A DNA stretch of 64,000 nt, from contig CAOKHI010000001.1 in assembly GCA_948468275.1 (NCBI GenBank), forward strand, positions 1,866-65,865, read 5' to 3'. The DNA comes from an uncultured Clostridium sp. Lineage in GTDB: Bacteria > Bacillota > Clostridia > TANB77 > CAG-508. Below, in pieces: positions 18,329 through 53,448 of the stretch. A program made the position numbers and the translations under genes. Position 1 is the stretch's first letter. Each line of letters begins with the position of its first letter. The notes under the pieces were generated by a model. It saw only the letters and a list, made by a program, of their open reading frames with translations. It had not been told where the DNA came from and did no database searches.

Positions 18329-18340
18329 TAAGGGGGAATT

Positions 18341-20931: not shown

Positions 20932-21279
20932 ATGAAAGCAGAAGAATTCCAAACAAAAGAAAAAGAACAGACAACAATCGCCGAGACATTTGATTTTGAA
21001 AACAAAAGAATAGGAGCATTTATTAAACACAGTTGCAGTGACGAGTTAGACATTAAGTTAAAATTTCTTGCAGATTATCAAGAAAAAAATAACATTGAAA
21101 AAATTGATTGGTTTTATACAGGGGAGAATGGAGATTACTGGGCATACTATAAAGCCATTACAGACATTTTTGAAGAAAACATAGATATTTTATTAGTAGT
21201 AGGAGACCTTGAAGAATTAACACCAGACTATGAAATACTAGAAAAAATTGAACAAAATGTTGAGTTAATAAGGGTGTAA
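20932..21279 (+). CDS. Hypothetical acidic protein (115 aa)
   Basis: RBS aggaggt then ATG. Confidence 0.45.
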   Translation: MKAEEFQTKEKEQTTIAETFDFENKRIGAFIKHSCSDELDIKLKFLADYQEKNNIEKIDWFYTGENGDYWAYYKAITDIFEENIDILLVVGDLEELTPDYEILEKIEQNVELIRV

Positions 21280-23623: not shown

Positions 23624-23636
23624 ACAATAGTAATAA

Positions 23637-24398
23637 AATAATATTATTACTATAATAGTACTATTAATATTAGTAGGTGTTACAATAAGTTTGATAGAAA
23701 AAAATGGAGTTTTTGAGTATGCAAAGGTGGCAACAGAAGAAACAAATAAACAAACAGCAACAGAAAAGATGAATTTAAAGATAACATCTACTCAGATGAA
23801 TATTTATGCAGAAGAACAAAGACTTCCAACACTCCAAGAATTTGCAGACGAACTATGTGAAGATAATGAAATAGAATATGTTGAAGTAAAAAGTAAAATA
23901 ATAGCAAGTGTAGCTAAAATAGATGTTGGAGAAGCACAGACAATATTTACAAAGTTAAAAGAGTATCCATATGAGTTTGAAATAAATTCTTCACTTCAGT
24001 TAGCAAGTATAGATGGTGTGAAAATTGCAACTAATAATACTGCTAAAGTAGGACAAAAGAAATATTCAACAGAGGAAACAATTGTGGGTAGTTGGATAGA
24101 TAATAAACCAATTTATCAAAAAACTTATGTTTTAACTGATTTATCAAAAAATGATGGACTGTTTATTACAATAGATGAAAATGCTAAGAATTATATAGAT
24201 AAATTTATACACAGTGAGTTTAGAATGACAAGAGCTATTGAGAATGTTCAATTGGCTTCATCATATGATTATGATGCTAATTCTCATTTTGCAGAGATAT
24301 GGTTTTCAAATGAAAAGGGATTATATATATTTGGAGCATTTGAATATACAGCATTAGAGTGTCATGTTACAGTACAATATACAAAGGTTACAGATTAA
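23637..24398 (+). pseudogene. 3' portion of the interrupted surface-protein paralog (continues from 13934 fragment)
   Basis: The frame is open from 23637 (NNIITIIVLLILVGVTISLIEKNGVFEYAK...). It is homologous to residues about 18-45 of the 4784 protein. The ORF track calls a TTG start at 23691. Confidence 0.65.
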
Positions 24399-24499
24399 AC
24401 TAAAAGTAAAAGAATATTTGACTTAGGAAACGAAGAAAAATAATATGAAGATATTTTGAAATAATGAAGAAAATAAAAGAAAACAAAGGAGTAGTGAAG

Positions 24500-25595
24500 A
24501 TGTTATATAAAGTTGAAATTAGAAAGACGAAAAATAATAGACGTTTAGGAAAACAAGAAGCAATAACTTTAATTGCATTAGTAATTACAATAATACTACT
24601 ACTTATATTATCAGGAGTAGTAATAAATTTAAGTATTCGGTCAAAATGGGCTTTTAGCTAGAGGAGAAAATGTAACTAATATGTGGAAAGAAGCAAGTAT
24701 AGATGAGCAGAAAAAATTTAATGAGCTATATGAAGAATTAGAAAATATGGAAATAGAGATACCACAATTACCTTATGAAGGAGTAGGATACAAATTTATT
24801 TATGATGGTACTTTAGGGGAAAGTGGTGTAGATGGAAAAAACATGTGTAATGATATTACTGGAGGATGGTCTACAAAAAGGACGAACTATGCTTTAAAAG
24901 GTGGAACATTTGATGGAAAAAAATTTGAGTGGTATCATGGTTGGCTTTTTACAAATGATAAAATAAATTTAACAAATTATAAAAAAATATATGTGTCATC
25001 GAATATAGTAGAAAATGGATCTGTTATATATAATTATGTTTATGGTTGGAGTAAACAATATGCTAATAATGGAGAAGTTTATCCATATCCAAATAATAAT
25101 CCATTAATAAATGTAGAAGCAGGTGGAAAAAAAGATTTTGCATATTATGAAAATAAAAGAACTATGGGATTAATTGATATACCAGAAAAATGGGAAGGAT
25201 ATATTGGTATATATTCATGTCATTCAGCAGGCAATACTTATTATTATGATTATCAAACATCTTATGTAAGAAATTTTTGCAATTCAGGCAGATATATAGA
25301 TGTATATAGTATAGTAGCTTTAAAAGAAGATGATTGGAAAGCATGGATAAAATTAGCTAAAATAGATAGTGATCAATTCACATCACTAAGTGAAATATTA
25401 GAAAATGAAGAAGTATTACAAAAGGCTTTTAGTAAGAGGAAAGCAAATGAGTATTTATTAAAGTGCTCAGGAACATTAATGGTTGAAATATTAAAAAATG
25501 ATAAATCATATAAATTAATTCCAAAAGAATTAATTGCAGAAATGCAAAACAATGAAAATTGGAATCATTTTATGAAAGTATGTGAGCTAAAATAG
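24500..25595 (+). pseudogene. Third paralog of the surface-protein family, interrupted by a +1 frameshift at about 24638
   Basis: ORF 24464..24661 carries the conserved N-terminus EAITLIALVITIILLLILSGVVINLSI. Frame +1 continues with GQNGLLARGENVTNMWKEAS... (compare GENGLFAKT in the 4784 protein). An extra C sits in attCggt. Confidence 0.65.
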
Positions 25596-25645
25596 AAAAA
25601 ATTTTAATTTTTTCTATTTTAGCTTACTCAGTACAAATTTGGTTA

Positions 25646-25826
25646 GTTACAGTTCACAGCGTATATAATAAAATCCGCTACGGCTAAGTAATATATTTTA
25701 TTTTTTCATTTCGCCCTCCAAGCTCACGGGTATTCCCCCGCCTCAATGGGCTGTCGGGTCTTCATTACAAAATAAAATATATTACTTAGTCTTCGCTACT
25801 TACTGCTATTGTCTGTGAATTGTAAC
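25646..25826 (+). repeat. About 180-bp GC-rich repeat element with terminal inverted repeats (MITE-like), copy 1
   Basis: TIR gttacagttcacag ... ctgtgaattgtaac. Near-identical copies at 43995-44174 (+) and 52853-53033 (-). Flanked by the direct repeat TTTGGTTAG. Confidence 0.75.
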
Positions 25827-25866
25827 TTTGGTTAGGAGAAAATCTGAACAAAAAAAATTTTGGATC

Positions 25867-25896
25867 TTGACAAGCCCTAAGGGAAAATGATATAAT
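25867..25896 (+). promoter_or_regulatory. Promoter TTGACA-N18-TATAAT in the rpoB upstream leader
   Basis: Direct read. Followed by about 400 nt of leader with hairpins (26026-26074, 26196-26215). Confidence 0.45.
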
Positions 25897-26316
25897 CATT
25901 AAACTATAAATTACGTTTAGAAACAAAAATTTTGTTAAACATTTTAAATCTTATACTAAATCTTAAAAATAGTAAGGGTGGTCAAGATTAAAATAGTAAT
26001 CCAGATAACAAATTTTTAGATAGAAAAAAGGTACGTTGGTAAAAAAAATGTGTATTTACCAACATGCCTTTTTGTTGCCGTAATTTAAGACTTATGTAAA
26101 TTAAATAAGAAGAGGAATTAAATTTTGTATAGAAACTAGTTTGTTTTGGTTTAAGAGCAGTATAACTAAAATGAGTAGTGGAAACTTAATTTAAGAAGGA
26201 CTTCTTTTTTATATAAAGTTGGATGTTATAGATTAGTTTAGAAACTCTTATGTGTGTTCTAATTTAAGATTTCAAATTTCCAATAACTGCTTAATTTATT
26301 TTATGAGGTGATTTTT

Positions 26317-29300
26317 TTGGTAACAGATATTAAACATGAAAAATGCGTAAGAAAAACATTTGCAAAAATTGAAGATAGTATTGAAATGCCTAATTTAATT
26401 CAAGTACAAAAAGATTCTTATAACTGGTTTGTAAATGTAGGATTAGGAGAAGTTTTAAAAGATATATCTCCAATAATTGACTATACAGGAAACTTGGTTT
26501 TAGAATTTTTTGACTACTATATGGAAGACAAAACTAAATACACTTTAGAAGAAGCAAAAGAAAGAGATACTACATATTCAACTAGACTACATGTAAAAGT
26601 TAGACTTATAAATCGTGAAACAGGAGAAATAAAAGAACAAGAGATTTATTTAGGGGATTTCCCTTTAATGACAGAGAGTGGAACATTTGTTATAAATGGT
26701 GCAGAAAGAGTTGTAGTAAGCCAATTAGTACGTTCACCAGGATGTTATTATGCATCTGATTATGACAAAACGGGTAAAAAAATATTTACATCAACAGTAA
26801 TGCCAATACGTGGAGCTTGGATAGAGTATGAAACAGATGCAAATGATGTATTTTATGTAAGAGTTGACAGAACAAGAAAACTACCTGTAACATCATTATT
26901 AAGAGCAATAGGATTAATAACAGACCAACAAATAATAGATATGTTTGGTGAAGAAGATAAAATTCTTGCAACAATACAAAAAGATACTGTAAAAACACAA
27001 GATGAAGCATTAATAGAGATATATAAAAAATTAAGACCAGGTGAATTACCAACAGCAGATGCTGCAAGAAACTTATTTAATGGATTATTTTTTGATAATA
27101 GGAGATATGATCTTGCAAAAGTTGGTAGATATAAATTTAATAAAAAATTAGGCCTTGCATCAAGAATAGCAAACCAGATAGCATTTGATGATATTATAGA
27201 TTCTGAAACAGGTGAAGTACTTGTAGAAAAAGATGCAATAATTACAAGTGATAAGGCTTTAGAAATTCAAAATTTAGGAATAAATATTGTAGATGTAAAA
27301 GTAGAAGACAAAAAAGTAAGAATAATTGGAAATGGAACAGTAGATATTACTAAATTTGTTGATATAGACTTAGAGATAAAAGAATTAGTAAACTATGAAG
27401 TATTAAAGAATATATTAGAAAATACTGACAAAAAGGATTTAAAGAAAATTATAGAAGAAAGAATGGATGAGCTAGTACCAAAACATATTGTGACAGAAGA
27501 TATTATAGCATCTGTAAATTACATATTAAATTTACAACATGGATTAGGTATGGTTGATGATATTGATCATTTAGGAAATAGACGTATAAGAAGTGTTGGA
27601 GAATTATTACAAAATCAATTTAGAATAGGTTTAACAAGATTAGAAAGAGTAGTTCGTGAGAGAATGACAATACAAGATTTAGATGTAGTAACTCCACAAA
27701 CTTTAATAAATACAAAACCAATAACATCATCAATAAGGGAATTTTTTGGAAGTTCACAATTATCTCAATTTATGGATCAAACTAATCCTTTATCAGAATT
27801 AACACATAAAAGAAGAGTATCTGCTTTAGGACCAGGTGGATTATCTAGAGAAAGAGCAGGTTTTGAGGTAAGAGATGTTCACTATACACATTATGGTCGT
27901 CTATGTCCAATAGAATCCCCAGAAGGACCAAATATAGGACTTATATCTGCATTATCATCATTTGCAATAATAAATGAATATGGATTTGTAGAAACACCAT
28001 ATAGGAAAATAGATCCTGTAACACATAAAGTAACTGATATTGTAGAATATATGAGTGCAGAAGAGGAAGAAGGACTAAGAATAGCGCAAGCATCAGAACC
28101 AATAGACAAAGATGGGAATTTTGTAAACAAGAAAGTAAAAATAAGATATAAAGACGATATAGAAGAAGTTTCACCAGAAAGAGTAGACTATATAGACATA
28201 TCACCAAAACAATTAGTTTCAGTTGGAGCTGCAATGATACCATTTCTTGAGCATGATGATGCACACCGTGCATTAATGGGTGCTAACATGCAACGTCAAG
28301 CAGTACCTTTATTAATACCAGATTCTCCAATAGTAGGAACAGGAATAGAGTATAGAGCTGCAAAGGATTCTGGAATAATGCAAATAGCACAATCAGATGG
28401 AACAATACAAAAAGTTACAGGTGATGAAATAGTAATAAAAACAACAAAAGGAGCAATTGAAAGATATCATTTAAGAAAATTTAAAAGGACAAATGGTGGA
28501 ACTTGTATAAACCAAAGACCAATTGTAGTAAAAGGTGAAAAGGTAAAAGCAGGAGATGTAATAGCTGATGGTCCTTCAACACAAAATGGAGAAATGGCAT
28601 TAGGTAAAAATGTATTAATAGCATTTGCTACATGGGAAGGATATAATTATGAAGATGCTGTATTAATTAGTGAAAGATTGGTAAAAGAAGATGTTTATAC
28701 ATCTATACATATAGAAGAATATGATTGTGAATGTAGAGATACAAAGTTAGGACCAGAAGAAATAACAAGGGATATACCAAATGTAGGAGAGGACAGTTTA
28801 AAAGATTTAGATGAAAATGGAATAATAAGAATAGGAGCAGAGGTAAAACCAGGAGATATATTAGTTGGAAAAGTTACTCCAAAGGGAGAAACAGAATTAA
28901 CAGCAGAAGAAAGACTATTACGTGCAATATTTGGAGAAAAAGCAAGAGAAGTAAGAGATACATCTCTTAAAGTACCACATGGAGAAGCAGGAACAATAGT
29001 TGATGTAAAAATCTTTACAAGGGATAATTCAGACGAGTTAGCTCCAGGAGTAAACCAAGTAATTAGATGTTATATAGCACAAAAAAGAAAAATATCTGTT
29101 GGAGATAAAATGGCAGGACGTCATGGAAATAAAGGTGTTGTATCAAGAATATTACCAGTAGAAGATATGCCATTTATGCCAGATGGAACACCTGTTGATA
29201 TAGTATTAAATCCACTAGGTGTACCTTCACGTATGAACCTAGGACAGGTGCTAGAGGTACATTTAGGAGCAGCAGCAAGAGAATTGGGATGGAAAGTAGC

Positions 29301-30048
29301 AACACCAGTATTTGATGGGGCAAAAGAGGCTGAAATAACAGAGTTGTTAGAAAAAGCAGGACGTACACCAGATGGAAAAACTATACTATATGATGGACGA
29401 ACAGGAGAAATGTTTGATAAGCCAGTTACTGTAGGTGTAATGTATATGTTAAAACTACATCACTTAGTAGACGACAAAATACATGCACGTTCAACAGGAC
29501 CATACTCACTAGTAACACAACAACCATTAGGAGGAAAGGCACAATTTGGAGGACAACGTTTTGGAGAAATGGAAGTTTGGGCATTAGAAGCATATGGAGC
29601 AGCACATACATTACAAGAAATATTAACTGTAAAATCAGATGATGTAGTGGGAAGAGTAAAAACATATGAAGCAATAGTAAAAGGAGAAAATGTTCCAGAA
29701 CCAGGAGTTCCAGAAAGCTTTAAAGTATTAATAAAAGAACTACAAAGTTTAGGGTTAGATGTGCGTTTGTACTCTGAGGATGATAGAGAGCTAGAATTAA
29801 AAGAAAACATAGAAGAAGGTATAGACATAAATTTAGAAAGAGAAAAACAACGAAATATATTATTAGATGATGAATTATCAGAAAACTATATAGAAGAAGA
29901 AACAGAAGAATTAATAGAAGAAGATGCTGATGAATTGTTTGAAGACTCATTACTAGATGATGAAGATGAAATGTTGTTAGATGATACAGATTTAGGTGTA
30001 GATAATCTTATGAATGATGAAGATATATTAGATGATGACAATGAGTAA
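26317..30048 (+). CDS. rpoB: DNA-directed RNA polymerase subunit beta
   Basis: RBS GAGGTG then TTG 26317 (alternatively GTG 26308). Conserved throughout. Highly acidic C-terminal tail. Confidence 0.95.
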
Positions 30049-30179
30049 GAGATTGAATAAATAATTAAATAAAAATCCATAAAAAACTAAAATAATGTAC
30101 AAAATAAATTGCACAGCAGTGTATCATTATTTTAGTAAGTTATGGATAACAAAATTCATATTCTGAAGGGAGAAAATTA

Positions 30180-33100
30180 GTGGACGAACTAGAAATATTT
30201 GATAAATTAAAAATAGGGCTTGCATCAGATGAAAAAGTTAGAGAATGGTCTAAAGGTGAAGTAAAAAAACCAGAAACTATAAATTATAGAACTCTAAAAC
30301 CAGAAAAAGATGGTTTGTTTTGTGAAAGAATATTTGGACCAACAAAAGACTGGGAATGTCATTGTGGGAAATATAAAAGAGTACGTTATAAAGGAATTGT
30401 GTGTGATAGATGTGGAGTAGAAGTTACAAAAGCAAAGGTAAGAAGAGAAAGAATGGGCCATATAGAGCTTGCAGCTCCAGTAGCACATATTTGGTACTTT
30501 AAAGGAATACCAAGTAGAATTGCATTAATGCTAGATATTTCACCTAGAAGTTTAGAAAAAGTTGTATATTTTGCATCATATATAGTTACAGACAAAGGAC
30601 AATCAGGTTTAATTAAATGTCAAGTACTAACAGAAAAGGAATACCATGAAGCAGAAGAAAAATATGGTAGAGGTTCTTTTAAAGCAGAAATGGGAGCAGA
30701 AGCAATTAAAAAATTACTAGAAGAAATAGATATAGAAAAATTAGCAGAAAAACTAAAAAAAGAAATAGAAAAAGCAAGTGAACAAAAAAAGGTAAAACTA
30801 GTAAAAAGATTAGATACAGTTGAATCATTTAGACTATCTGGAAATAAGCCAGAATGGATGATTATGAATGTTGTACCTGTAATTCCACCAGAGTTAAGGC
30901 CAATGGTACAATTAGATGGTGGAAGGTTTGCAACATCTGATTTAAATGATTTATATAGAAGGGTTATAAACAGAAATAACAGACTAAAAAGATTACTTGA
31001 ATTAGGCGCTCCAGAAATAATAGTAAGAAATGAAAAAAGGATGTTACAAGAGTCTGTAGATGCTTTAATAGATAATGGTAGAAGGGGAAGACCTGTTACA
31101 GGAGCAGGAAATAGACCACTAAAATCATTATCAGATTTATTAAAAGGAAAACAAGGTAGATTTAGACAAAACTTACTTGGAAAAAGGGTTGATTATTCAG
31201 GACGTTCTGTTATAGTAGTTGGACCAGAATTAAAAATTTATCAATGTGGACTTCCAAAGGAAATGGCAGTTGAATTATTTAAACCATTTGTAATGAAAGA
31301 ATTAGTAGGAAGAGGAATAGCTCATAATATAAAAAATGCTAAAAGAATGGTAGAAAAATTAAGACCAGAAGTATGGGATATATTAGAAGAGGTTATAAAA
31401 GATCATCCTGTAATGCTAAACCGTGCACCAACATTACATAGATTAGGTATACAAGCATTTGAGCCAGTATTAGTAGAAGGAAGAGCAATAAAATTACATC
31501 CATTAGTTTGTACAGCATTTAATGCAGATTTTGACGGTGATCAAATGGCAGTACACGTACCATTATCACCAGAAGCACAAGCAGAAGCAAGATATTTGAT
31601 GTTATCTGTAAATAACTTATTAAAGCCACAAGATGGTAAACCTGTTACAGTACCAACACAAGATATGATACTTGGAAGTTATTATCTAACAATGGTAGTA
31701 GATGGAGAAATAGGGGAAGGTACATATTTTAAAGATATAGAAGAAGCATTAATGGCATATGCAAATGGAGAAGTAGGATTACATGCAAAAGTATTTATAA
31801 GAATGTTTAAAGAAATAGATGGTGAGTTAAAACATAAAAAAGTAGAAACAACAGTTGGAAGGGTTATATATAATCAAGAAATACCACAAGATTTAGGATT
31901 TGTAGATAGAACTAACCCAGAAAATGCATTTGAACCAGAGATAAACTTCCCAGTAATTAAGAAAAATTTAGGAACAATAGTTGCAAAATGTATAAATGTA
32001 CATGGATTATCGAGAGCAGCAGAACTATTAGATTATATAAAAGCAACAGGATTTAAATATTCTACAAAAGGTGCTATAACAGTTAGTGTTAAAGATATTA
32101 TAATACCACCAACAAAGCAAAGTATATTAGATACAGCAGAAGTAGAGGTAGAAAATATAGCAAAACAATATAAACGTGGATTAATAACAGAAGATGAAAG
32201 ATATGAATCTGTTATTAAGGTATGGGAAGATGTTACAAGTGATGTAACAGAAGCCATGAAAGATAATTTTGATGAATTAAATCCAATATACATGATGGTA
32301 CAATCAGGAGCAAGACGGAAATATGAACCAGTTAAGACAAGTAGCAGGTATGAGAGGTCTTATGGCAAATACATCTGGAAAAGCAGTAGAAATACCAATT
32401 AGATCATCATTTAGAGAAGGACTAGATGCACTAGAATATTTCGTATCAAGCCATGGAGGAAGAAAAGGACTTGCAGATACAGCGTTAAGAACAGCCGATT
32501 CAGGATATTTAACAAGAAGATTAGTTGATGTTTCTCAAGACATAATAGTAAGAGAAAAAGATTGCAGAACGCATGATGGAATTGAAATACAAGATATAAA
32601 AGATGGAAATCAAATAATAGAGAAATTAGAAGAAAGATTAGAAGGAAGATATCCATTAGAAGATATTGTAGATCCAAAAACAAAACAAGTAATAGTAGAT
32701 ACAGATACGATGATAGATGAAAAAATAGCAAAACAAATAGTAGAGGCAGGATATGATAGTGTAAAAGTGCGTTCAGCATTAGGATGTAGATCAAAACATG
32801 GTGTATGTGCTAAATGTTATGGAATGGGTCTTGCAACAAGAGAAGAAGTAAATATAGGAGAGGCAGTAGGAATTATAGCTGCACAGTCAATAGGAGAACC
32901 AGGAACACAGCTTACAATGAGAACTTTCCACCAAGGTGGTGTTGCAGGAGGAGATATAACACAAGGTCTTCCAAGGGTAGAAGAACTATTTGAAGCAAGA
33001 AAACCAAAAGGACTTGCAATAATTTCAGAAATTGAAGGTAAAGTAAAAATATCAGATGATAGGAAGAAAAAAGAAGTAACAGTAACAAATAAATCTGATT

Positions 33101-33759
33101 CAAGAACATATACAATACCTTTTGGATCAAAATTACATGTAAGGGATGGAGATGAAATACAAGCAGCAGAACCAATAACAGAAGGTTCAATAAATCCAAA
33201 TGAAATACTTGAAATTAAAGGGGCACAAGGTGTATATGAATATCTAATACAAGAAGTTCAAAAAGTGTATAGAAACCAAGGTGTTGATATAAATGATAAG
33301 CATATCGAAGTAATAGGTAGACAAATGTTAAAGAAGGTAAGAGTAGAAGATAATGGTGATACAGATATGTTTGCAGGTTCATTAGTGGATATATATGAAT
33401 TTGAAGAAAAGAATCAAAAAGCTGAAGAAGAAGGTAAACGAATAGCAACAGGAAAAAGAACATTACTTGGAATAACAAAAGCATCACTTGCAACAGAGAG
33501 CTTCTTATCTGCAGCATCATTCCAAGAAACAACAAGAGTATTAACTGAAGCGGCAATAAAAGGAAAAGTAGATCCATTAATAGGATTAAAAGAAAATGTA
33601 ATAATAGGAAAATTAATTCCAGCGGGAACAGGTATGAATGTGTATAAAAATATAAGAATAAATACAGAAGAGGATGTTTCTATACAAGAACCACAACAAG
33701 ATAGTATAGTTGGTGAAGAAGTAGTAGAACAAGAAAAGATGGCTATTGTAGAAGAATAA
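30180..33759 (+). CDS. rpoC: DNA-directed RNA polymerase subunit beta' (read as two ORFs, 30180..32402 and 32323..33759, because of a +1 frameshift at about 32316)
   Basis: GTG start with a GGGAG RBS. ORF1 ends ...[14 protein letters not shown]... and ORF2 begins [15 protein letters not shown]. The conserved [12 protein letters not shown] is restored by deleting the C in agaCggaaat. Confidence 0.9.
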
Positions 33760-33773
33760 AAATAAATGTTATA

Positions 33774-33815
33774 AAAAATTTCCATATTAGTATAAGATTA
33801 ATATGGAAATTTTTT
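33774..33815 (+). terminator. Terminator after rpoC
   Basis: AAAATTTCCATATT agtataagatt AATATGGAAATTTT followed by a T-rich tract. Confidence 0.65.
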
Positions 33816-33892
33816 GTATAATAATAGGAAAAATAATAAAGGCTTAGTTCTATAAATAAGATATATGAATATAATATATAGTGAGGTGTATT

Positions 33893-44279: not shown

Positions 44280-45236
44280 ATGATAGAAAGAAGAAAAGTT
44301 GTTTTAGTAGGTACAGGGTTTGTTGGTATGAGTATGGCATATTCATTATTAAACCAAGGAGGAATTAATGAGTTAGTTTTAGTAGATATAATGAAAGATA
44401 AAGCTCAAGGCGAGGCAATGGATTTAGCACATGGAATGCCATTTGCACCAAGTAAGGTAGATATAAAATCTGGAGATTATGAAGAATGCAAAGATGCAAA
44501 TATTGTTGTAATAACAGCAGGATTAAATCAAAAGCCAGGTCAGACAAGATTAGAACTTGCAAAAGCAAATGCTAAAATAATAAAAGATATTACAATACAA
44601 GTAGTACAAAGTGGATTTAAAGGAATATTTGTAGTAGCAAGTAATCCTGTAGACTTAATGGCATATGTAGTTTATAAAACATCAGGATTTCCAAGTAGCA
44701 AAATAATAGGATCTGGAACGGTGTTAGATACATCAAGGTTACGTTTTTTATTAGGGGAATATTTACAAGTATCTAGTAAAAATGTTCATGCATATATAAT
44801 GGGAGAACATGGAGATTCATCTTTTGTTCCATGGTCACATTGCTATGTGGGATGTAAAAAATTAGTAGATGTTATGGAACATAATAAAAAAGATATAAAA
44901 GATTTAGATAAAATTTATACAGGAGTACAACAAGCAGCATATGAAATAATAGATAAAAAAAAGGCAACATACTATGGAATAGGTATAGCTTTAACTAGAC
45001 TAATAAAAGCAATATTAGGTGATGAAAATTCTATTATGACAGTATCAACATTTTTAAATGGAGAGTATTCTCACAAAGGAATATTCATTGGAGTACCTGC
45101 TATAATAAATAGAAAAGGGGTAAGAGAAGTTTTAGAATTAGAACTACAAAAGGAAGAACAAGAGAAATTTGATGCTAGTTGTAATATACTACAAGACAAT
45201 ATAAAACAAATAGCAGATGATATAATAAATAATTAA
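44280..45236 (+). CDS. ldh: L-lactate dehydrogenase
   Basis: VVLVGTGFVGMSMAY NAD-binding motif. GEHGDS active-site region. 318 aa. Confidence 0.9.
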   Translation: MIERRKVVLVGTGFVGMSMAYSLLNQGGINELVLVDIMKDKAQGEAMDLAHGMPFAPSKVDIKSGDYEECKDANIVVITAGLNQKPGQTRLELAKANAKIIKDITIQVVQSGFKGIFVVASNPVDLMAYVVYKTSGFPSSKIIGSGTVLDTSRLRFLLGEYLQVSSKNVHAYIMGEHGDSSFVPWSHCYVGCKKLVDVMEHNKKDIKDLDKIYTGVQQAAYEIIDKKKATYYGIGIALTRLIKAILGDENSIMTVSTFLNGEYSHKGIFIGVPAIINRKGVREVLELELQKEEQEKFDASCNILQDNIKQIADDIINN

Positions 45237-45322
45237 ACAAAAAGAATTTTTAATAAATATTAGAATATAAATAAAAGAATAGCATTAGCTATTCTTTTAT
45301 TTATAAAGGAGAGTGTTTAATT

Positions 45323-45967
45323 ATGAAAAAAATAAAAATTATTATTGCATTACTATTAATTATGGCAATTTGTACAACAGTTTTTTACTTTTTTTATAAA
45401 AATAATTATAAAACTGCAAATTTAGGAAATACTAATCTTAAGGAAGAAGACATAAAAGAATATATTTTAAATATTAGCTCTTATGAAGCTGAGGTTACAG
45501 TAAATGTAAATAGTAATAAAAATACGAATAAATATGTAATGAAACAACAATATACAAATAAAGGAATATTTAAACAAGAGGTGTTACAACCAAGTAATAT
45601 ACAAGGATTAACAACTAAATATGAAGATGGAAAATTAGTAATAGAAAATACAAAATTAAATCTAAAGCAAATTTATGAAAATTACGAATATGTTTCAGAA
45701 AATTCACTTTGTTTGAATACATTTATCGAAGAATATAAAAAAAGTAATAATTCAAAATTTATAGTAGAAGATAAACAAATAATAATGCAAACAAAAACTC
45801 AAGATAGTGAAAATAAGAAAGTATCAAATAAGAAATTATATATAGATAAAAAAACAGCAAAACCAATTAAATTAGAAATAGAAGATATTAACCAAAAAAT
45901 GCTAGTTTACATATTATATAATGAGATAAAAATAAATAGTACAAATCAAAAAGAATTACTAGCATAA
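45323..45967 (+). CDS. Membrane-anchored or exported hypothetical protein (214 aa)
   Basis: N-terminal signal-anchor, Asn/Lys-rich. RBS aaggagag. A terminator follows ldh at 45267-45297. Confidence 0.45.
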   Translation: MKKIKIIIALLLIMAICTTVFYFFYKNNYKTANLGNTNLKEEDIKEYILNISSYEAEVTVNVNSNKNTNKYVMKQQYTNKGIFKQEVLQPSNIQGLTTKYEDGKLVIENTKLNLKQIYENYEYVSENSLCLNTFIEEYKKSNNSKFIVEDKQIIMQTKTQDSENKKVSNKKLYIDKKTAKPIKLEIEDINQKMLVYILYNEIKINSTNQKELLA

Positions 45968-46078
45968 AAAATAGTAAAACAAAAAACCTAATAACTATAT
46001 TTTTAATCTCAAGCTAAAATTAAAATATATCTAATAAATTCGAAACTAAAAAATACTGTAATATCAGGAGTGAAGAAA

Positions 46079-46429
46079 ATGGTAGTTAAAAGAGGGGATA
46101 TGTTTTATGCAGATTTAAGTCCAGTAGTTGGATCTGAACAAGGAGGAGTTAGACCTGTATTAATAATACAAAACGATATGGGAAACAAATACAGTCCAAC
46201 AGTAATAGCAGCAGCAATAACATCACAAACAGGAAAAAATAAATTACCAACACATATAGAATTAGGTTCTAAAGATTATGGATTAAAATCAGACTCAGTA
46301 GTACTTGCTGAACAAATAAGAACAATAGATAAAAGCAGATTAAAAGAAAAAATAGGGCATATAGATGATAATGAAATAATTAATCAAATAAATAATGCCT
46401 TAGGAGTAAGTTTTGGACTAGAGGAGTAA
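46079..46429 (+). CDS. mazF: MazF/PemK/EndoA-family endoribonuclease toxin
   Basis: [33 protein letters not shown] is almost identical in pattern to B. subtilis EndoA. AGGAG RBS. No antitoxin ORF lies upstream. Confidence 0.8.
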
Positions 46430-46443
46430 ACAAATATCAATAA

Positions 46444-46482
46444 AAAGAGTATAGAGAAGAAAATTTTCTATACTCTTTTTGG
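46444..46482 (+). terminator. Terminator after mazF
   Basis: AAAAGAGTATAGA gaagaaaatttt TCTATACTCTTTTT. Confidence 0.65.
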
Positions 46483-46748
46483 GGTTAAAACCATTATATA
46501 AAACAAAAAGCAATATACTTAAAAGGAATTTCTAAAGAGCAAATTAATGATATTTTATAAATACCACCAATACATTTGATATAGCAAGCTCTTTGAAGAT
46601 TTTTATATAAAAAACTATTAAAACAGTAACAAAAAAAATAAAAAAATTTTAAAAAAAGCTTGCAAAATTAGAGAAGTTATATTAAAATTTAACTAAAGTG
46701 GTACGAAGTGGTAAAAAGTGGTTTGAAAAGGAGCGAGGTGACAGGTAA

Positions 46749-47180
46749 GTGTTTATAGGTGAATATGAACATAATGTAGATGCTAAAGGAAGAGTTATAA
46801 TGCCTTCTAAATTAAGAGAAGACATAGGCGACAAGTTCATTATAACCAAAGGACTTGATGGCTGTTTATTTGCTTATTCACAAACCGAATGGACAAACTT
46901 CGAAGAAAAACTAAAAGCACTACCACTTGCACAAAAAAATGCTAGAAACTTTGTAAGATTCTTTTTATCAGGAGCAGTAGAATGTGAAATAGATAAACAA
47001 GGAAGATTCTTAATACCATCTAATTTAAGAGAACATGCCAGACTAGATAAAGAAATAGTAATAATTGGAGTAGGTACAAGAATAGAAATTTGGAACAGAG
47101 AAACTTGGAAAGAATATAGCAGTGATGAAAATATTTCTGCTGATGAAATAGCAGAAAATATGACAATGTTGGGTATATAA
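46749..47180 (+). CDS. mraZ: Transcriptional regulator MraZ
   Basis: GTG start. [19 protein letters not shown]... Two SpoVT/AbrB-like repeats. 143 aa. Confidence 0.85.
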
Positions 47181-47295
47181 CTTTTTTAAAGTTTATATAA
47201 ATGTACAAAAGATAAATATCAAGGATATTTAAAAAAGGTGCAAAACTAAAGAAAAATTAAAATTTAAGAATACAAAAGATAAAAAAATTAAGAAC

Positions 47296-47530
47296 AAAAG
47301 ATAAAGTTATTCAAATAAAAGAAAAATAAAATCAAAAGATAAGCTATACAAAAGATAGAAAAAGTAAAATCAAAAGATAAGTTATACAAAAGAAAAAATG
47401 TAAAGTCAAAAGATAAGTTATACAAAAGAAAAAATAAAGTTAAAAGAAAAGTTATACAAAAGAAAAAAGTAAAGTTAAAAGATAAAGCTATACAAAAGAA
47501 GAAAAAAGTAAAATAAAAAGATAAAAATAT
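47296..47530. repeat. Tandem array of about 7 copies of an about 36-bp A-rich unit (CAAAAGATAAGYTATACAAAAGAAAAAAKTAAAGT) between mraZ and rsmH
   Basis: Units read directly. They are contiguous with no unique spacers. Confidence 0.7.
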
Positions 47531-47723
47531 ACAAAAGAAGAAAAGTATAATATTAATATATAATATTAAGAATTTCAAAAGACAAATTACATAGGTACAT
47601 AAAGAATGGTAAAAGTACCAAAGATGATATAAATACTAAAGAAAGAAGAAAAAAGAATATGCAGCAGTTGGTATTTTCTAATGCCAACTGTTATGCTATA
47701 TTATAAAAACAAGAGGTGCAAAG

Positions 47724-48652
47724 TGGAGTTTAACCATAAACCAGTATTATTAAATGAATGTATACAAGGATTAAATATTAAAAAAGATGGTATTTATATA
47801 GATGGTACTATGGGAGGAGCAGGACATAGTTTACAAATAGTAAAAAACTTGTCAAAAGATGGAATGCTTATTGGTATAGATAGAGATACTAAAGCATTAG
47901 AAAGTGCCAAAGAGAGATTAAAACAATTCGACAATATAAAATACATACATGGTAACCATGATAATATAAAAAACATATTAGAAGAAATAAAAGTAGAAAA
48001 AGTAGATGGAATACTATTAGACTTAGGAGTATCATCATATCAAATAGATACACCTGTAAGAGGATTTAGCTACATTCAAGAAAGCCAATTAGATATGAGG
48101 ATGGATACAACACAAACATTAACAGCAAAAGAAGTAGTAAATACATATAAAGAAGAAGATTTAGCAAAAATAATATATGAATATGGTGAGGAAAAGTTTA
48201 GTAGGCAGATTGCAAAAACAATATGTGAATATAGGAATAAAAAGCAAATAGAAACAACATTGGAATTAGTAGATATAATAAAACAAGCTATACCATTTTT
48301 TGATAAAAATGGAGGGCATCCAGCTAAAAGAACATTTCAAGCAATACGAATAGAAGTAAATAATGAAATAGAGCCATTATATAATACAGTAATAGACTGT
48401 ATACATAGTTTAAAACAACAAGGAAGGCTATGTATAATAACATTTCATTCATTAGAAGATAGAGCAGTAAAAAAAGCATATAATGATGCACTTGGAAAAT
48501 GTACATGTCCAAAAGAATTACCATATTGTGTATGCAATGCAAAGAATTTAGGAAAAATAGTAAATAAAAAACCAATATTACCAACAAAAGAAGAACAACA
48601 AAATAATATAAGATCAAAAAGTGCAAAATTAAGAATATTTGAAAAGGTATAA
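47724..48652 (+). CDS. rsmH: 16S rRNA (cytosine1402-N4)-methyltransferase RsmH (MraW)
   Basis: RBS AGAGGTG then GTG 47724 (VEFNHKPVLLNE...). SAM-binding IDGTMGGAGHS. The ORF-track start at 47681 is less likely. Confidence 0.85.
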
Positions 48653-48674
48653 ATAAAAATAGGGAGGTGAGATT

Positions 48675-49196
48675 ATGGCATATAGTAATAGATACCAATA
48701 TGAAACAAGTCCACGAAAATTAGAACCAGAATATAGACCTATAAAAAAGAAATATCCTAAAAAAAGTACAGCAAAAAAGATAAAAGAAGAACCTAAAAAA
48801 TATCCTAAGAAGAAAATAAAAAGTAAAAGACAAATTAAGTCACAACTTAAAATTATAGGATATGTAGTAGTAGTTTTTTCAATACTATTGGCCATAAGCT
48901 ATAGAAATTCTCTAATAAACGAAAATTTTGCACAAATAAAAAAATTAAGAGCGGATTTAGCATCAATTGAAAAAGAAAATGAGCAACTACAAGTAAATAT
49001 AGAAAATAATCTAAACTTAAAAACAGTAGAACAATCTGCACAAGAACAATTAGGAATGCAAAAATTAAATAGTTCACAAAAAGTATATGTAAATTTACCA
49101 AAACAAGATTATATAGAACCTGCAACAGAAGAAATAAAAAAAGAAGAGAACACAAATTGGTTAAAGAAAATAATAAAGATATTTATAGGAAAATAA
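48675..49196 (+). CDS. ftsL: FtsL/DivIC-like septum-formation protein
   Basis: Basic N-terminus, one TM helix (IIGYVVVVFSILLAI), then a coiled coil. RBS GGGAGGTG. A terminator follows at 49195-49228. Confidence 0.6.
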   Translation: MAYSNRYQYETSPRKLEPEYRPIKKKYPKKSTAKKIKEEPKKYPKKKIKSKRQIKSQLKIIGYVVVVFSILLAISYRNSLINENFAQIKKLRADLASIEKENEQLQVNIENNLNLKTVEQSAQEQLGMQKLNSSQKVYVNLPKQDYIEPATEEIKKEENTNWLKKIIKIFIGK

Positions 49197-49417
49197 AGAA
49201 TAAATTTGAAAATGTTATTCTTTATTTTTATTATTATAAGAAGGATCTATTCTTTAATAAAAAAGAATGTAAAAATAAAAGCATAATAAATATAGCTGGT
49301 TAAATAAACAGTTACATAATTTGCTAGATTCCTATAAATAGGATATAATAGATATGTATTAAAAACATTATATTTAAAAGCATTACAACTCTAAGGTAAA
49401 AGTTTTATTAAAATCCA

Positions 49418-49446
49418 TTGACAACAAGAAACATTTGTTTTAAAAT
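49418..49446 (+). promoter_or_regulatory. Promoter TTGACA-N17-TAAAAT upstream of the toxSAS-like gene
   Basis: Direct read. Confidence 0.45.
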
Positions 49447-49541
49447 GTGAATAGACTATATTTACAAAACTAAAAAAGTGATAAAAGCATAAAAAATTTA
49501 AATTTGTATGTTAGAATATATAAAAAGAAAGAGAAAATCAT

Positions 49542-50156
49542 ATGTTAGAAGAGTTAGAAAAGTTAATTGATTTTATACAAACGGAATATATTGATTTTAC
49601 ACAACAATGGGAAAATAACTATTATTATTCAAAAATAAATCTAAAAAGTACCTTAGTTCGTGAAGTCTTAGAAAATAAAATACTTTTAGATTCAATAATT
49701 AGTTATAGAGAATTTATTAATGAAAACAATATACAATTACTAATGGATTTTAAGCAGTTTAGTACAGAGAAATCAAAGGTTAATATCAGGACAAAAGCTA
49801 AAAACTCCATAGAATATAAAATAAAAAATTATATGGAAAATCATGAGAATGGAAAAGTACCAATTAACAAGTGTTTTAATGATTTATTTGGGATAAGAAT
49901 TATTTGCGAAGATAAACTTACTTATAACAAAATTGCTAATTTGATAAACAATAAATATAGTGAATTAAAGTGTATTGATTCTTCTAAAAAAGATTACAAA
50001 GCAACACATATATATTTTAAAAAGAACAATTTTAATTTTCAATGGGAATTACAAGTATGGAATAAAGTAGATGAGATAAACAATATAGAATCGCATGAAA
50101 AATATAAACAAGATTATGTTAGATGGGAAAGGGAAAATAAAGGAGGGAATAAATAG
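49542..50156 (+). CDS. RelA/SpoT-domain small alarmone synthetase-like protein (toxSAS-like toxin, PanT candidate)
   Basis: SAS motifs RTKAKNSIEYKI (R-K..S...K), DLFGIRIIC (GIRxxC), DYKATHIYF (GY+S+H+) and ELQVWN...ESHEKYKQ (EIQIRT...EH..YK). 204 aa. The stop overlaps the downstream start. Confidence 0.65.
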   Translation: MLEELEKLIDFIQTEYIDFTQQWENNYYYSKINLKSTLVREVLENKILLDSIISYREFINENNIQLLMDFKQFSTEKSKVNIRTKAKNSIEYKIKNYMENHENGKVPINKCFNDLFGIRIICEDKLTYNKIANLINNKYSELKCIDSSKKDYKATHIYFKKNNFNFQWELQVWNKVDEINNIESHEKYKQDYVRWERENKGGNK

Positions 50157-50908
50157 TGGTAACTCATTTTATATTTATGAGCAGTTCATATTCATTAGGA
50201 ACAAGAATTGCGCTTGATTTTATAGTGAGAGAAGCAAGCATACAAGAGGAATTGAAAAAAGACTTAGACAAAATTATTTCACAATGTGGTAGAGATGTAT
50301 CTATTTCAACTCATATGATACAAGGCGATGACGAAACATGGGAATCAGTTTGCATGGCAGATCACTTTTTCAAAGGGGTTAAAGTAATAGAAGATTTAGA
50401 AACATTTATCAGTTTAATAAAAAAGGATAGAAAACTACAGGGAATAGATGTAGCAAAATATATTTTATCAAAAATTACATGTACTCAATTAAAGTTGCAA
50501 AAGTTAGTGTATTTATGTTTTGCGGATTATTTATGCGATACAGGAAAAATATTATTCACAGATAAAATTTATGCTTTTAAGTATGGTCCTGTTGTAGATA
50601 CTGTATATAAAAAATATAAAGAATATGGATATGAAGCAATTGAAGAAGAAAAGGGGGATATTGATACTGAAGGTATATTTGAAATGCCAGCAAAAAGTAG
50701 AATATTGTTTGCAGAAGATGGAACAGGAAAAATAGTTAACATAGAAAAAACACTAAAAAAGTATGGAAATTTAACAGCAACAGAATTAGTTCATTTGACA
50801 CATAGGGAGTGTTCACCATGGAATAAAACTTATAAGGGAGAAGAAAGAGCATATTCGCAGATAGGATTAAATACAATTAAAGAATATCATAAATTCGAAA
50901 CAATATAA
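50156..50908 (+). CDS. Panacea-domain (DUF4065) protein, candidate antitoxin (PanA)
   Basis: KLQKLVYLCFADYLCDTGKILFTDKIYAFKYGPVVDTVYKKYKEYG matches the DUF4065 core. RBS AGGAGGG then GTG 50156. Confidence 0.65.
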   Translation: MVTHFIFMSSSYSLGTRIALDFIVREASIQEELKKDLDKIISQCGRDVSISTHMIQGDDETWESVCMADHFFKGVKVIEDLETFISLIKKDRKLQGIDVAKYILSKITCTQLKLQKLVYLCFADYLCDTGKILFTDKIYAFKYGPVVDTVYKKYKEYGYEAIEEEKGDIDTEGIFEMPAKSRILFAEDGTGKIVNIEKTLKKYGNLTATELVHLTHRECSPWNKTYKGEERAYSQIGLNTIKEYHKFETI

Positions 50909-51066
50909 TTTTTTTAGTTTAATTTATTTGTATAATTTACAAATTATATTATTTGGAATTTATTAGATACTTTTTCATTTATAGAATTAGATAACATAAA
51001 AACTATTGAAAAAGATAGTATATTTATGGTATAGTGACATAAATACTAAATGGAGGGAAAATTAAA

Positions 51067-51606
51067 GTGAGAATATTATTAACAAGACATGGTCAAACAG
51101 ATTGGAATGTATTAAAAAAAATACAAGGATGTACAGATATAGAGTTAAATGAAAAAGGAATTGAGCAAGCAAAAGAGGCAAGGAAAAAATTATTAGAATA
51201 TGATATTGATTATATTATAGCATCGCCATTAAAAAGAGCTAAAAAAACAGCAGAAATAATTAATGAAGGAAGAAATATCCCTTTAATTGTAAGTGATGAT
51301 ATTAAAGAAAGAAATTTTGGAAAATTCGAAGGTAAAACAGCCAAAGAAATTGATTTTGATGAGATATGGAATTATAAATTAAATAAACAATATAAACATG
51401 CAGAAAGTGTGGGAGAAGTATTTGATAGAGTTAGTGGATTTATGAATAATTTGAAACATAAATATGATGATAAAACAGTACTTCTAGTAACTCATGGAGG
51501 AATATGTGTACCAATTAGAGCATATTTTGAAGGAATACCAGAAGGAATGGATGTTTTAAAAGGAATGGGGCTAGACAATTGTCAAATAAAAGAATATAAT
51601 CTATAA
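51067..51606 (+). CDS. Histidine phosphatase family protein (phosphoglycerate mutase-like)
   Basis: RHGQTDWN catalytic motif. 179 aa. Confidence 0.75.
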   Translation: MRILLTRHGQTDWNVLKKIQGCTDIELNEKGIEQAKEARKKLLEYDIDYIIASPLKRAKKTAEIINEGRNIPLIVSDDIKERNFGKFEGKTAKEIDFDEIWNYKLNKQYKHAESVGEVFDRVSGFMNNLKHKYDDKTVLLVTHGGICVPIRAYFEGIPEGMDVLKGMGLDNCQIKEYNL

Positions 51607-51684
51607 AACCATAATAGTATTTTTCTTTATTATAAAATTAAAAAAATAGCATATAATAAAGAAAAATATTATTGGAGGTTTTTT

Positions 51685-52278
51685 ATGTTAAAGATGAAGG
51701 AATTACCATATAATTTGAATTCATTAGAGCCTTATTACTCTAAAGAAACTTTAGACATTCATTATAATGTTTTATATAAAGGATATGTGGATAATACAAA
51801 TAAAACAGAAGAAAAATTAAAAATAGCAAGACAAGAAAATAATTTTCAAAATATTAAATGTTTAGAAAGGGATCTAAGTTTTTATGGTTCAGGAGCAATA
51901 TTACATGAAATGTTTTTTGAAAATATGGGAATACCTCTACCAACTACACCAAGTAATGAACTTATTAATCAAATAAATCAAGACTTTGGAAGCTTTGATA
52001 AATTTCAAAATCAATTTATAGAAGCAGCAAAAGCAGTAGAAGCATCACGGATGGTGTATATTAGTATGGGGAGAAAGATTCAAAAAATTAGAGATACTAC
52101 AGTGTGAAAAACATCAAAATTTAACACTTTGGGGATGTGTACCAATATTTGTTCTAGATATGTGGGAACATTCATATTTTTTGCAATATAAAGCAAATAG
52201 AGCAGAATATATAAATGCATTTAAAAACATAATTAATTGGAATGTAATAAATAAAAGATTTGAACAAATTAATAAATA
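51685..52278 (+). CDS. sodA: Fe/Mn superoxide dismutase-like protein, frameshifted (+1) at about 52048; some metal-ligand positions look divergent
   Basis: N-terminal part ELPYNLNSLEPYYSKETLDIH..., FGSFDKF. The C-terminal SOD signature LWGCVPIFVLDMWEHSYFLQYKANRAEYINAF is in the +1 frame (52110-52278). Deleting the C in tcaCggatgg restores ASGWCILV... Confidence 0.75.
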
Positions 52279-52298
52279 AATTTTAGGAGAGATAAAAC

Positions 52299-52802
52299 GT
52301 GAAAATAAATGTTGTATTAGTAGAGCCAGAAATACCACAAAATACAGGAAATATAGCAAGAACATGTGCCGCAACAGGAGCAAAATTACATTTAGTAGGA
52401 CCCTTAGGATTTAGTATTTCAGATAAATATGTAAAAAGAGCAGGACTTGATTATTGGGATAAATTAGAAATTGAAGAACATATATCTTTTAATAAATTTT
52501 TAGAAAAATATAAACCAGAAGAAAATAATATGTTCTTTGTTACGACAAAAGGAAAACAAGTATATTCAGATGATGTTTTTGGAGATTTAGCTGATGTGTT
52601 TGTTCTTTTTGGTAAAGAAACAAAGGGTTTACCAGAAGATATTTTACAAAAACATATAGATAAAACAATAAGAATTCCTATGAAAGAACATTTGCGTTCA
52701 CTAAATTTATCAAACTCGGTAGCAATAATTGTATATGAAATATTAAGACAAAATGATTTTAAAGGATTACAAGAAATTAGTGATTATTTTAACTTAAGAT
52801 AA
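52299..52802 (+). CDS. trmL: tRNA (cytidine/uridine-2'-O)-methyltransferase TrmL (SpoU family)
   Basis: GTG start. NTGNIARTCAATGA motif. 167 aa. Confidence 0.8.
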   Translation: MKINVVLVEPEIPQNTGNIARTCAATGAKLHLVGPLGFSISDKYVKRAGLDYWDKLEIEEHISFNKFLEKYKPEENNMFFVTTKGKQVYSDDVFGDLADVFVLFGKETKGLPEDILQKHIDKTIRIPMKEHLRSLNLSNSVAIIVYEILRQNDFKGLQEISDYFNLR

Positions 52803-52852
52803 ATGATTAAACTTGGTAAAATATAATAATTTTTACCAAAGTTTATTTTATT

Positions 52853-53033
52853 GTTACAATTCACAGACAATAGCAGTAAGTAGCTACGACTAAGTAATAT
52901 ATTTTATTTTGTAATGAAGACCCGACAGCCCATTGAGGCGGGGGAATACCCGTGAGCTTGGAGGGCGAAATGAAAAAATAAAATATATTACTTAGTCGTA
53001 GCGGATTTTATTATATATGCTGTGAACTGTAAC
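52853..53033 (-). repeat. About 180-bp MITE-like repeat element, copy 3 (inverted orientation)
   Basis: Reverse complement of copies 1 and 2 with 2-3 substitutions. Flanked by TTTATTTTA / TAAAATAAA direct repeats. Confidence 0.75.
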
Positions 53034-53448
53034 AATTTATTTTATCAGTTTAATTAAGAACTAGAATTTTATCATAATGTACAAGTAATACAAATAAAAA
53101 TATAAAGTATAGTAATTGTTATTGATAAATATTTTTTATATTAAATGTAGCTGCAAGTGAGATAGAAGAAAATGTATTATATGGAATAACTTTAATTACA
53201 GGACTATTCAAAGGAACTACTATATAAATTTCCAAAAAACGAGAAAAAAAGAGAATTTTGGAGAAAATAGAAGAAAATGTTATGAAAAAATAGAATTAAA
53301 ATTATATAGATTAGTAAAATTTGATAAATTTACAAAAAAATGAGTATACATAATTTGAATTTACATAAAATATAGTGTATAATATAAATATATTCGCGTA
53401 AAAAAATCTAAAAAAGGAGAGTGTATATATATTTTAAGAAGGAAAATA

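Follow-up and report, generated by a model that had tools for sequence, protein, structure and literature searches.

The 64,000-nucleotide (nt) stretch of DNA analysed here, which we call the window, comes from an uncultured Clostridium sp. (contig CAOKHI010000001.1 of assembly GCA_948468275.1) and carries three near-identical copies of a 181-bp repeat. We propose, with a probability of about 0.6, that this repeat is a non-autonomous element resembling a miniature inverted-repeat transposable element (MITE), whose hairpin tip holds an apical module maintained by selection; that figure leaves aside whether the module acts as RNA. Taken one by one, the parts of this proposal differ in strength. 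Judging by their sequence organisation, the three copies are very probably a small, non-coding, mobile MITE-like repeat, and comparison across species makes purifying selection on the apex for some function likely. An RNA-level function of the apex has somewhat less than an even chance. The observations behind these claims are the repeat itself, its terminal inverted repeats and flanking 8-bp duplications, the absence of an open reading frame (ORF) or transposase, conservation of the apex across species and compensatory evolution of the stem.

Three copies with common ends and 8-bp duplications

The copies, located by sequence comparison, have the following positions, ends and flanking repeats in the window:

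25646–25826, + strand: copy A, full 181-bp element
43995–44175, + strand: copy B, full 181-bp element with a mutated right end (..GAATAGTAAA, not ..GAATTGTAAC)
52853–53033, − strand: copy C, full 181-bp element in inverted orientation
25646–25659, + strand: terminal inverted repeat at the left end of copy A, GTTACAGTTCACAG (motif scan; 0.08 chance matches expected)
25813–25826, + strand: terminal inverted repeat at the right end of copy A, CTGTGAATTGTAAC; 13/14 positions complementary to the left repeat
25638–25645: left 8-bp target-site duplication of copy A, TTTGGTTA; partner 25827–25834, 8/8 match
25827–25834: right 8-bp target-site duplication of copy A, TTTGGTTA
43987–43994: left target-site duplication of copy B, AACGTAGT; partner 44176–44183, 7/8 match
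44176–44183: right target-site duplication of copy B, AACATAGT
52845–52852: target-site duplication on the low-coordinate side of copy C, AATAAAAT in element orientation, 7/8 match
53034–53041: target-site duplication on the high-coordinate side of copy C, AATAAATT; partner 52845–52852

All three copies are intergenic, their edges are sharp, and the sequences flanking them are unrelated. Copies A and B agree at 179/181 positions, A and C at 177/181, and B and C at 175/181 (97–99% identity; 2–6 differing positions). Of the four differences between copies C and A, three convert mismatched or wobble positions at the stem base to Watson-Crick pairs (GCTACGACTAAG / CTTAGTCGTAGC), and the arms are 94% complementary in copy C vs. 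85% in copies A and B. GC content is 27.7% in the window, 38.1% in the element and 67.3% in its 49-nt core. The core occurs exactly three times in the window and was matched at up to three mismatches in 0/100 shuffles; 40-nt stretches with at least 60% GC were confined to the three copies and one palindrome at ~12.4–12.5 kb.

The terminal inverted repeats are 14 bp long (GTTACAGTTCACAG / GTTACAATTCACAG) and complementary at 13/14 positions, and within the window the motif is found only at the ends of the element. With the element bounded as GTTAC...GTAAC, direct repeats abut the inverted repeats exactly in each copy, matching at 8/8 (A), 7/8 (B) and 7/8 (C) positions; for 8-mers 181 bp apart in the window, the chance of a match at 7/8 positions or better is 0.0039, and that of 8/8 is 0.00027. 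The same arrangement recurs in another species, in the metagenome-assembled genome (MAG) CATLDI, where a copy (L008) has the same ends (GTTACAATTCACAGC...GCTGTAAC) between flanks CCTGCTTT / CATGCTTT that match at 7/8 positions. In all, 8-bp direct repeats adjoin the inverted repeats in 4/4 copies with such ends, the three in the window and L008. Fixed 8-bp duplications beside inverted repeats are a signature of staggered-cut DDE transposition. A TA duplication of the Tc1/IS630-like type was considered for these ends and rejected, since the longer repeats AAAAC(G/A)TAGT and TTTGGTTA are plainly present.

An earlier, sequence-only reading of this DNA had described three near-identical copies, all intergenic, with a GC-rich core in AT-rich surroundings and inverted repeats of about 14 bp, and each of these points holds. 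Its coordinates stand for copies A and C, and its end of copy B, 44174, is one base short (44175 when the mutated last base is counted). The direct repeats that it took for 9-bp target-site duplications are present, but 8 bp is the length that fits; the repeats are the same, and the difference arose because the boundary had been read one or two bases off.

Hairpin fold and apical module

Folding of the whole unit, which the sequence-only reading had put forward as a check, predicted one long hairpin, with −61.4 kcal/mol for copy A vs. −28.6 ± 3.6 kcal/mol for shuffles (z = −9.0). The reverse strand folds nearly as well (−60.5 kcal/mol). The subterminal inverted arms seen earlier correspond to a perfect 23-bp stem, which is present in both minimum free energy (MFE) and centroid structures:

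25682–25704, + strand: 5′ arm of the 23-bp perfect AT-rich main stem, copy A; pairs with 25769–25791
25769–25791, + strand: 3′ arm of the main stem, copy A
25713–25759, + strand: apical module, copy A (core proper 25717–25755), a GC clamp (GCCC...GGGT) around TCCAAG-CTCAC-GGGTATTCCCCCGCCTCAATGGGCTGTC
44066–44104, + strand: conserved core, copy B
52924–52962, − strand: conserved core, copy C

The family consensus consists of a long AT stem, a GC clamp of 3–4 bp, TCCAAG, a variable linker of 5–8 nt, GGG-TATT-CCC, CC, GCCT-CAAW-GGGC and TGTC. The apex that the relatives share is ~40 nt long, TCCAAG-(5–8 nt)-GGGTATTCCCCCGCCTCAAWGGGCTGTC, and its segments GGG-TATT-CCC and GCCT-CAAW-GGGC can be read as two mini-hairpins within a GC-rich module of 40–45 nt.

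Relatives in gut Clostridia keep the apex and change the arms

The search for relatives, likewise foreseen in the sequence-only reading, yielded, besides metagenome loci, 25 loci spread over 15 MAGs that represent uncultured Clostridia of the gut of goats, rabbits and humans; none of the relative loci came from the window's own genome. The genome scan covered one genome per species and used 22 nt of the core as its pattern. Its counterpart on metagenomes took the remaining half of the core as anchor and recovered 12 true loci, 9 of them one locus of a human-gut species, and one further match, in GC-rich DNA, that was due to chance. Two more copies were added by a covariance model, one diverged and the other truncated and decayed.

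At least seven subfamilies can be separated by arm sequence, and they coexist within genomes (CATLDI has both the window type and the L005 type). The number of copies per MAG reaches five (CALXVD, L006 type), and three other MAGs have three each. In nine metagenome contigs of the human-gut species, the element occupies the same locus, inside a por operon. One human-gut metagenome contig (L040, 3197–3413) has the element duplicated in tandem, with several substitutions in the second copy.

In an alignment of 12 subfamily representatives, identity is 46% in the arms, which is close to random for AT-rich DNA, vs. 96% in the apex with its variable linker excluded. High identity in the core is partly due to the search pattern, and the fair test is offered by columns outside the pattern: here CTCCAAG is 96% and GCTGTC 100% identical for the genome scan, and the 3′ half, which lies outside the metagenome pattern, is 96% identical.

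The two arms of the stem change together. Pairing is retained in 92% of stem cells of the alignment, vs. 73% in shuffles and 44–58% with slid partners; 95 stem cells have changes on both sides vs. 31 in shuffles, and 17/25 stem pairs include a double change. The GC clamp covaries as well (GCCC/GGGT, GCC/GGC, TGGC/GCCA, GTCC/GGAC, CTC/GAG). Within the apex, variation is limited to the linker, the second loop (CAAT, CAAA, CAAAA, TAAA) and one compensatory pair, GGG/CCC to AGG/CCT, in the second tandem copy of L040. A centre that is kept while ends and arms drift is the reverse of what is seen in a classic MITE or REPIN.

Coding content, promoter-like sites and known families

No credible ORF was found in the element, which is overlapped only by chance ORFs of 20 and 46 amino acids. 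A conserved coding frame was rejected, as one frame stays open in the L001 type but not in the window type. Among ~40 window ORFs scanned, none had a DDE transposase domain in Pfam, which agrees with the sequence-only reading that no transposase lies in the window, and Pfam scans of window ORFs and of the relatives' neighbour genes gave no Y1/HUH transposase near any copy. Recombination genes in the window encode a G2P-type rolling-circle Rep (14361–15206), a resolvase (19452–20060, − strand) and a large serine recombinase (21884–23623). A gene for RNase III is located at 62098–62778.

One promoter-like site was found inside the left end of copy A:

25646–25674, + strand: weak, inward-facing promoter-like site (GTTACA, 17 nt, TAAAAT; 9/12), with TAAAAT at 25669–25674

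In 7/8 related species a TAnnnT hexamer is located just 5′ of CCGCT; such hexamers are common in AT-rich DNA. An intrinsic terminator was tried as an explanation of the hairpin and rejected, because the stem is AT-rich, no T-run follows it and the terminator scan was empty. In L001- and L006-type relatives, a second AT hairpin, also conserved and ending in a T-rich tail, follows the main one.

At gathering level, Rfam 15 (whose families include twister, twister-sister, pistol, hatchet, hammerhead, 6S, HEARO and Clostridiales-1 motifs) gave no match in the window and only tRNAs in 18 relative loci. Permissive scans of copy A, of the core alone and of an L006-type unit returned only noise (E > 0.06), and this check, also named in the sequence-only reading, therefore matched the unit to no family at any threshold tried. 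A twister-like resemblance (CCAAGC) was considered and dropped because no covariance model matched. There was no match by blastn to phage and plasmid collections or by core patterns to viral contigs, string searches of the literature for the core and the inverted repeat gave nothing relevant, and no relation to a tRNA or tmRNA was found in the window.

Insertion sites

In the window, the three loci lie upstream of rpoB, upstream of ldh, and between the genes for SpoU and an M23 peptidase. The neighbours of the element are unrelated housekeeping genes (clpP/tig, recF/gyrB, uvrC, rfb genes and por genes among them), and no recurrent partner gene was found among the neighbours of relative loci. 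At loci with both neighbours on one strand, the element is co-oriented in 7 cases and anti-oriented in 8. Such varied neighbours and mixed orientation exclude a cis-regulator that acts in a strand-specific way on one class of genes; both features fit a mobile repeat or an independent gene. The window copies begin 49–51 nt past the stop codon of the upstream gene, and 3/4 inverted-repeat copies lie 0–18 nt 3′ of a strong terminator-like hairpin. At L008, the duplicated 8 bp are the 3′ arm of the terminator-like hairpin. This siting could reflect a target preference or a tolerance of insertions at such places.

Contigs of the same species were retrieved by exact-protein look-up of five flanking genes. 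Short-read contigs from other samples (99–100% identical) end inside the element or no more than 16 nt from it at all three sites; breaks at every copy are what a multi-copy repeat would produce.

Proposed mechanism

The structural features of bacterial MITEs that could be assessed in this DNA are present: a length of 181 bp, no coding content, inverted repeats, 8-bp duplications, near-identical copies (three in 64 kb) and no transposase nearby. This organisation, together with the breaking of contigs at the copies, supports the sequence-only reading of a mobile, non-autonomous, MITE-like element.

Behind it we infer a transposase family, transcription, processing by RNase III and possibly some action in trans, in the following outline. 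The element would have inserted via an 8-bp staggered cut that left 8-bp target-site duplications, with a transposase supplied in trans from an element outside the window. As a guess, the mover may be an IS256-type DDE enzyme, because this family makes 8-bp AT-rich duplications; ISL3, IS6, IS66 and IS1595-type enzymes are also candidates. Transcription could start at the weak inward promoter in the left end or continue into the element from genes beside it. RNase III would then cut the long perfect stem, and the C-rich apical loop, set free or put on display, would serve as a small RNA (sRNA) or protein-binding module. It is the module, and not the ends, that is conserved across subfamilies and species, and the module would therefore be the selected cargo or function. 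We regard an RNA or a single-strand motif as its probable nature, and RNA as the likeliest level of action.

A bolder version, more doubtful than RNA-level function as such, is that the ~40-nt apex (TCCAAG, linker, GGGUAUUCCCCCGCCUCAAWGGGCUGUC) is an undescribed functional RNA or single-strand module spread through uncultured gut Clostridia at the tips of MITE-like hairpins. In that case the stem and ends that carry it could change or be exchanged with the cargo left as it is, and the whole would be a mobile non-coding gene, not a decayed insertion sequence. The apex could serve as the seed of a regulatory sRNA, bind a protein or have catalytic activity.

Several observations weigh against a mobile element with a selected, hairpin-borne apex. 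With respect to mobility, the ends are kept in two species only, and other subfamilies have different or decayed ends at which duplications cannot be defined. The same three sites are filled in the one other strain sampled, and neither an empty site nor an insertion polymorphism was found with the five flanking-gene look-ups or among ldh homologues (in relatives with 83–86% identical ldh, synteny is not kept around that gene). The window and the 8-kb relative loci contained no autonomous element with matching ends. With respect to the apex, it folds unremarkably on its own (z = −0.1 to −1.1), its MFE structure differs among variants, and both mini-hairpins are almost invariant and hence give no covariation signal. 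Covariation in the stem is equally expected of a DNA palindrome. In a by-strand count of G-U vs. A-C pairs, the + strand had 48 wobble pairs and the − strand 67. Finally, the terminator scan of 25400–26400 found no terminator-like site for the window-type element.

Alternative explanations

The main rival to action at the RNA level is a role as DNA, in which the apex, as a cruciform or single-stranded hairpin, would be recognised by a protein and needed for propagation of the element. Candidate binders are the mobilising enzyme, a recombinase, or a replication or priming factor like those that use the single-strand origins of rolling-circle replicons. An orientation-independent function would fit the mixed orientation to neighbours; the strand count favours neither strand clearly, and the sequence of the apex is conserved though its RNA fold is not outstanding. 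Window-type copies have a TAGCG-like motif beside the hairpin base (CGCTAC on the + strand), and the rolling-circle Rep and two serine recombinases lie in a genomic island that ends at copy A. Copies B and C, however, are distant from that island. Moreover, the 8-bp duplications and inverted repeats point to ordinary DDE transposition of double-stranded DNA, for which the ends matter and the centre does not. Duplications of this kind are not left by hairpin-reading HUH or tyrosine enzymes. Variation in the core also obeys hairpin logic (loop changes, one compensatory pair), which is not required of a double-stranded site. We consider a DNA-level role unlikely, although it fares better than the explanations that follow.

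The sequence-only reading had offered a conserved sRNA gene as the alternative to mobility. The part about conservation was upheld, in that the GC-rich core recurs across species with covarying arms; the opposition to mobility was not, and the two readings are better combined. In its pure form this alternative supposes a non-mobile, multi-copy sRNA gene family, kept identical by gene conversion and flanked by direct repeats through chance or local duplication. It would account for cross-species conservation of the core with covarying stems, for the −10-like hexamer before the hairpin, for the second AT hairpin with its T-rich tail in L001- and L006-type relatives, which may be a terminator, and for the single fixed locus in nine contigs of the human-gut species. 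It is nonetheless quite unlikely given that the 8-bp direct repeats abut the inverted repeats in 4/4 such copies, that copy boundaries are sharp and flanks unrelated, that truncated and decayed copies occur, that several subfamilies share a genome and that assemblies break at every copy.

Somewhat less probable still is a passive structural repeat that serves as a bidirectional terminator, an mRNA 3′-end stabiliser or an RNase III site, with an apex that has no specific role. Such a repeat would fail to explain why a non-palindromic apex of 40 nt is 96% conserved beside a freely changing stem, and as a terminator it has neither a U-tract nor a hit in the terminator scan. What speaks for it is position: window copies start 49–51 nt after the upstream stop codon, 3/4 inverted-repeat copies are 0–18 nt 3′ of a terminator-like hairpin, and in one human-gut species the element is inside a por operon; the window also includes an RNase III gene.

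A REP/REPIN-type palindrome moved by a RAYT (IS200/IS605-like tyrosine/HUH) transposase is very improbable. The element shares with REPs and REPINs its nature as a long, intergenic, hairpin-forming repeat and a GTAG-like motif near the stem base (CTAC on the + strand, next to the hairpin), but REPINs keep their arms, vary their loop and have no target-site duplications or such terminal inverted repeats, which is the opposite on each point, and no copy has a Y1/HUH transposase near it.

Comparison with known systems

We return to the MITE-like element with a selected apex. Correia/NEMIS elements of Neisseria, ERIC elements of enterobacteria and RUP elements of S. pneumoniae are similar in size and organisation (100–200 bp, non-coding, with inverted repeats, a duplication and near-identical copies). 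They are also intergenic, often by gene ends, and form a hairpin from the whole unit that RNase III can process if it is transcribed. The Correia duplication is TA, compared with 8 bp here. Correia, ERIC and REP elements have been reported to act within transcripts as terminators, mRNA stabilisers or RNase III sites. Families of stem-loop repeats have been catalogued (PMC2267715), and Coxiella QMITEs appear to be hairpin-folding miniature elements of a comparable kind (PMC5896051). The element described here has no sequence relationship to these hairpin MITEs (Correia/NEMIS, ERIC, RUP and QMITEs). Unlike classic MITE families, which are defined by their conserved ends, it conserves its centre while arms and ends diverge with compensation.

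Members of the IS256 family, such as ISCth4 of Clostridium thermocellum, have 8-bp AT-rich duplications, a subterminal TGTAAA and TAAAAT in the left end (PMC7780238). Our element resembles ISCth4 in its 8-bp AT-rich duplications, its Clostridia host and the TAAAAT −10-like hexamer inside its left end. It differs in that TGTAAA is matched only loosely, by TGTAAC at the extreme tip, and in that no transposase gene was found. IS256 parentage is a lead, not a finding.

RsaE/RoxS and the UCCC loops of RNAIII represent the regulatory sRNAs of Firmicutes that have C-rich loops. Like these, the element presents GC- or C-rich single-stranded segments (CCUCC, UUCCCCC) on a predicted hairpin in an AT-rich genome, and by analogy these segments could pair with G-rich Shine-Dalgarno regions. 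Unlike RsaE/RoxS-type sRNAs, it has no Rfam match and no terminator-like site in the window type, and is carried in several copies on a mobile hairpin.

Other features of related loci

Related MAGs contain a second, unrelated hairpin family (X), with an AT-rich stem, a GC-rich tip GAGGAAGCGGAAACCGAGAGGCTCG and a folding energy of −34.8 kcal/mol (z = −4). Its copies (L001 6165–6278 and 2717–2826; L004 5378–5491; L012 256–369; L006 5135–5224; L014 3197–3286) lie no more than ~150 nt downstream of the element studied here, except L001 2717–2826. The related genomes seem to hold several families with AT stems and GC tips. A non-coding unit (Y; ...GGGTGGGGACCGACAAGC...TGCAGTTGGGGCG...), for which Rfam gave no match, is directly downstream of the element at L010 2272–2439, L013 729–892 and L018 ~4720–4900. 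At L016 (~1580–1620 and ~270–310), both copies in the MAG are followed by ACTTTCCTAGAATATAAAATAA, which resembles the XerC/D dif site of Firmicutes (ACTTCCTAGAATATATATTATGTAAACT).

In the MAG CAKOYB, three copies (L009, L011 and L017) are inside a larger repeat of >400 nt with a (TG)n microsatellite. This repeat includes the upstream region of paralogous prepilin-like genes, whose N-termini resemble the pilin-like ORFs beside copy A.

Other features of the window

Copy A is at the right edge of an island of ~13 kb (~12300–25640) between tuf and rpoB. The island encodes a G5/3D-domain protein, prepilin-like ORFs (at ~13.9 kb and, split in two, at 24464–25595), the Rep, SHOCT proteins, the resolvase and the large serine recombinase, and probably represents an integrated element of plasmid-like or inovirus-like type. 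Copy A is intact with its own duplication and is therefore not a split attachment site of the island. A composite transposon of copies A and B is also unlikely, as rpoB and rpoC lie between them. At the left edge of the island, the palindrome at 12386–12506 (57-nt arms, 79% complementary, with GC-rich outer ends, TAGTGTCAATAGGGACGGGGCTTTTTGACAC...) is the window's one GC-rich island besides the three copies.

Several genes appear disrupted: rpoC is split into overlapping ORFs (30180–32402 and 32323–33759), a second copy of aspS is split in two (58031–59783, − strand), and a superoxide dismutase gene (51685–52107) has a truncated C-terminal domain. These may be either assembly frameshift errors or real pseudogenes. 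A Wadjet-like defence cluster (33881–42699) directly follows rpoC and precedes copy B; it comprises DUF6075, DUF2397 and DUF2398 proteins, an SbcC/Rad50-like ATPase (1366 amino acids) and a DUF3323/DUF2399 protein with a weak JetD_C match. Tandem AT-rich repeats of ~34–36 nt (AAAAGATAAGYTATACAAAAGA...) occupy 47250–47540, between mraZ and the next gene (47681–48652), which is probably rsmH. At 49542–50908, a small protein with a RelA/SpoT domain is followed by one with a SocA/Panacea antitoxin domain, and together they look like a toxSAS-type toxin-antitoxin pair.

Significance

As a MITE, the element represents a new family of a well-known kind. What makes it an unusual variant, one that could hide a new class of non-coding RNA, is that in at least 15 species the centre is conserved and the arms can be replaced. 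For genome work, the element breaks short-read assemblies of these organisms and, as three of the four intergenic GC-rich islands in a window of 28% GC, is a useful marker of their genomes. Should the apex have no function, the element is a new but ordinary MITE family. With a functional apex, a 40-nt motif within 181 bp would be a simple object for tests, and a small non-coding module would have been spread by a miniature transposon across many species of gut Clostridia, which would link the biology of MITEs to the evolution of non-coding RNA in uncultured organisms.

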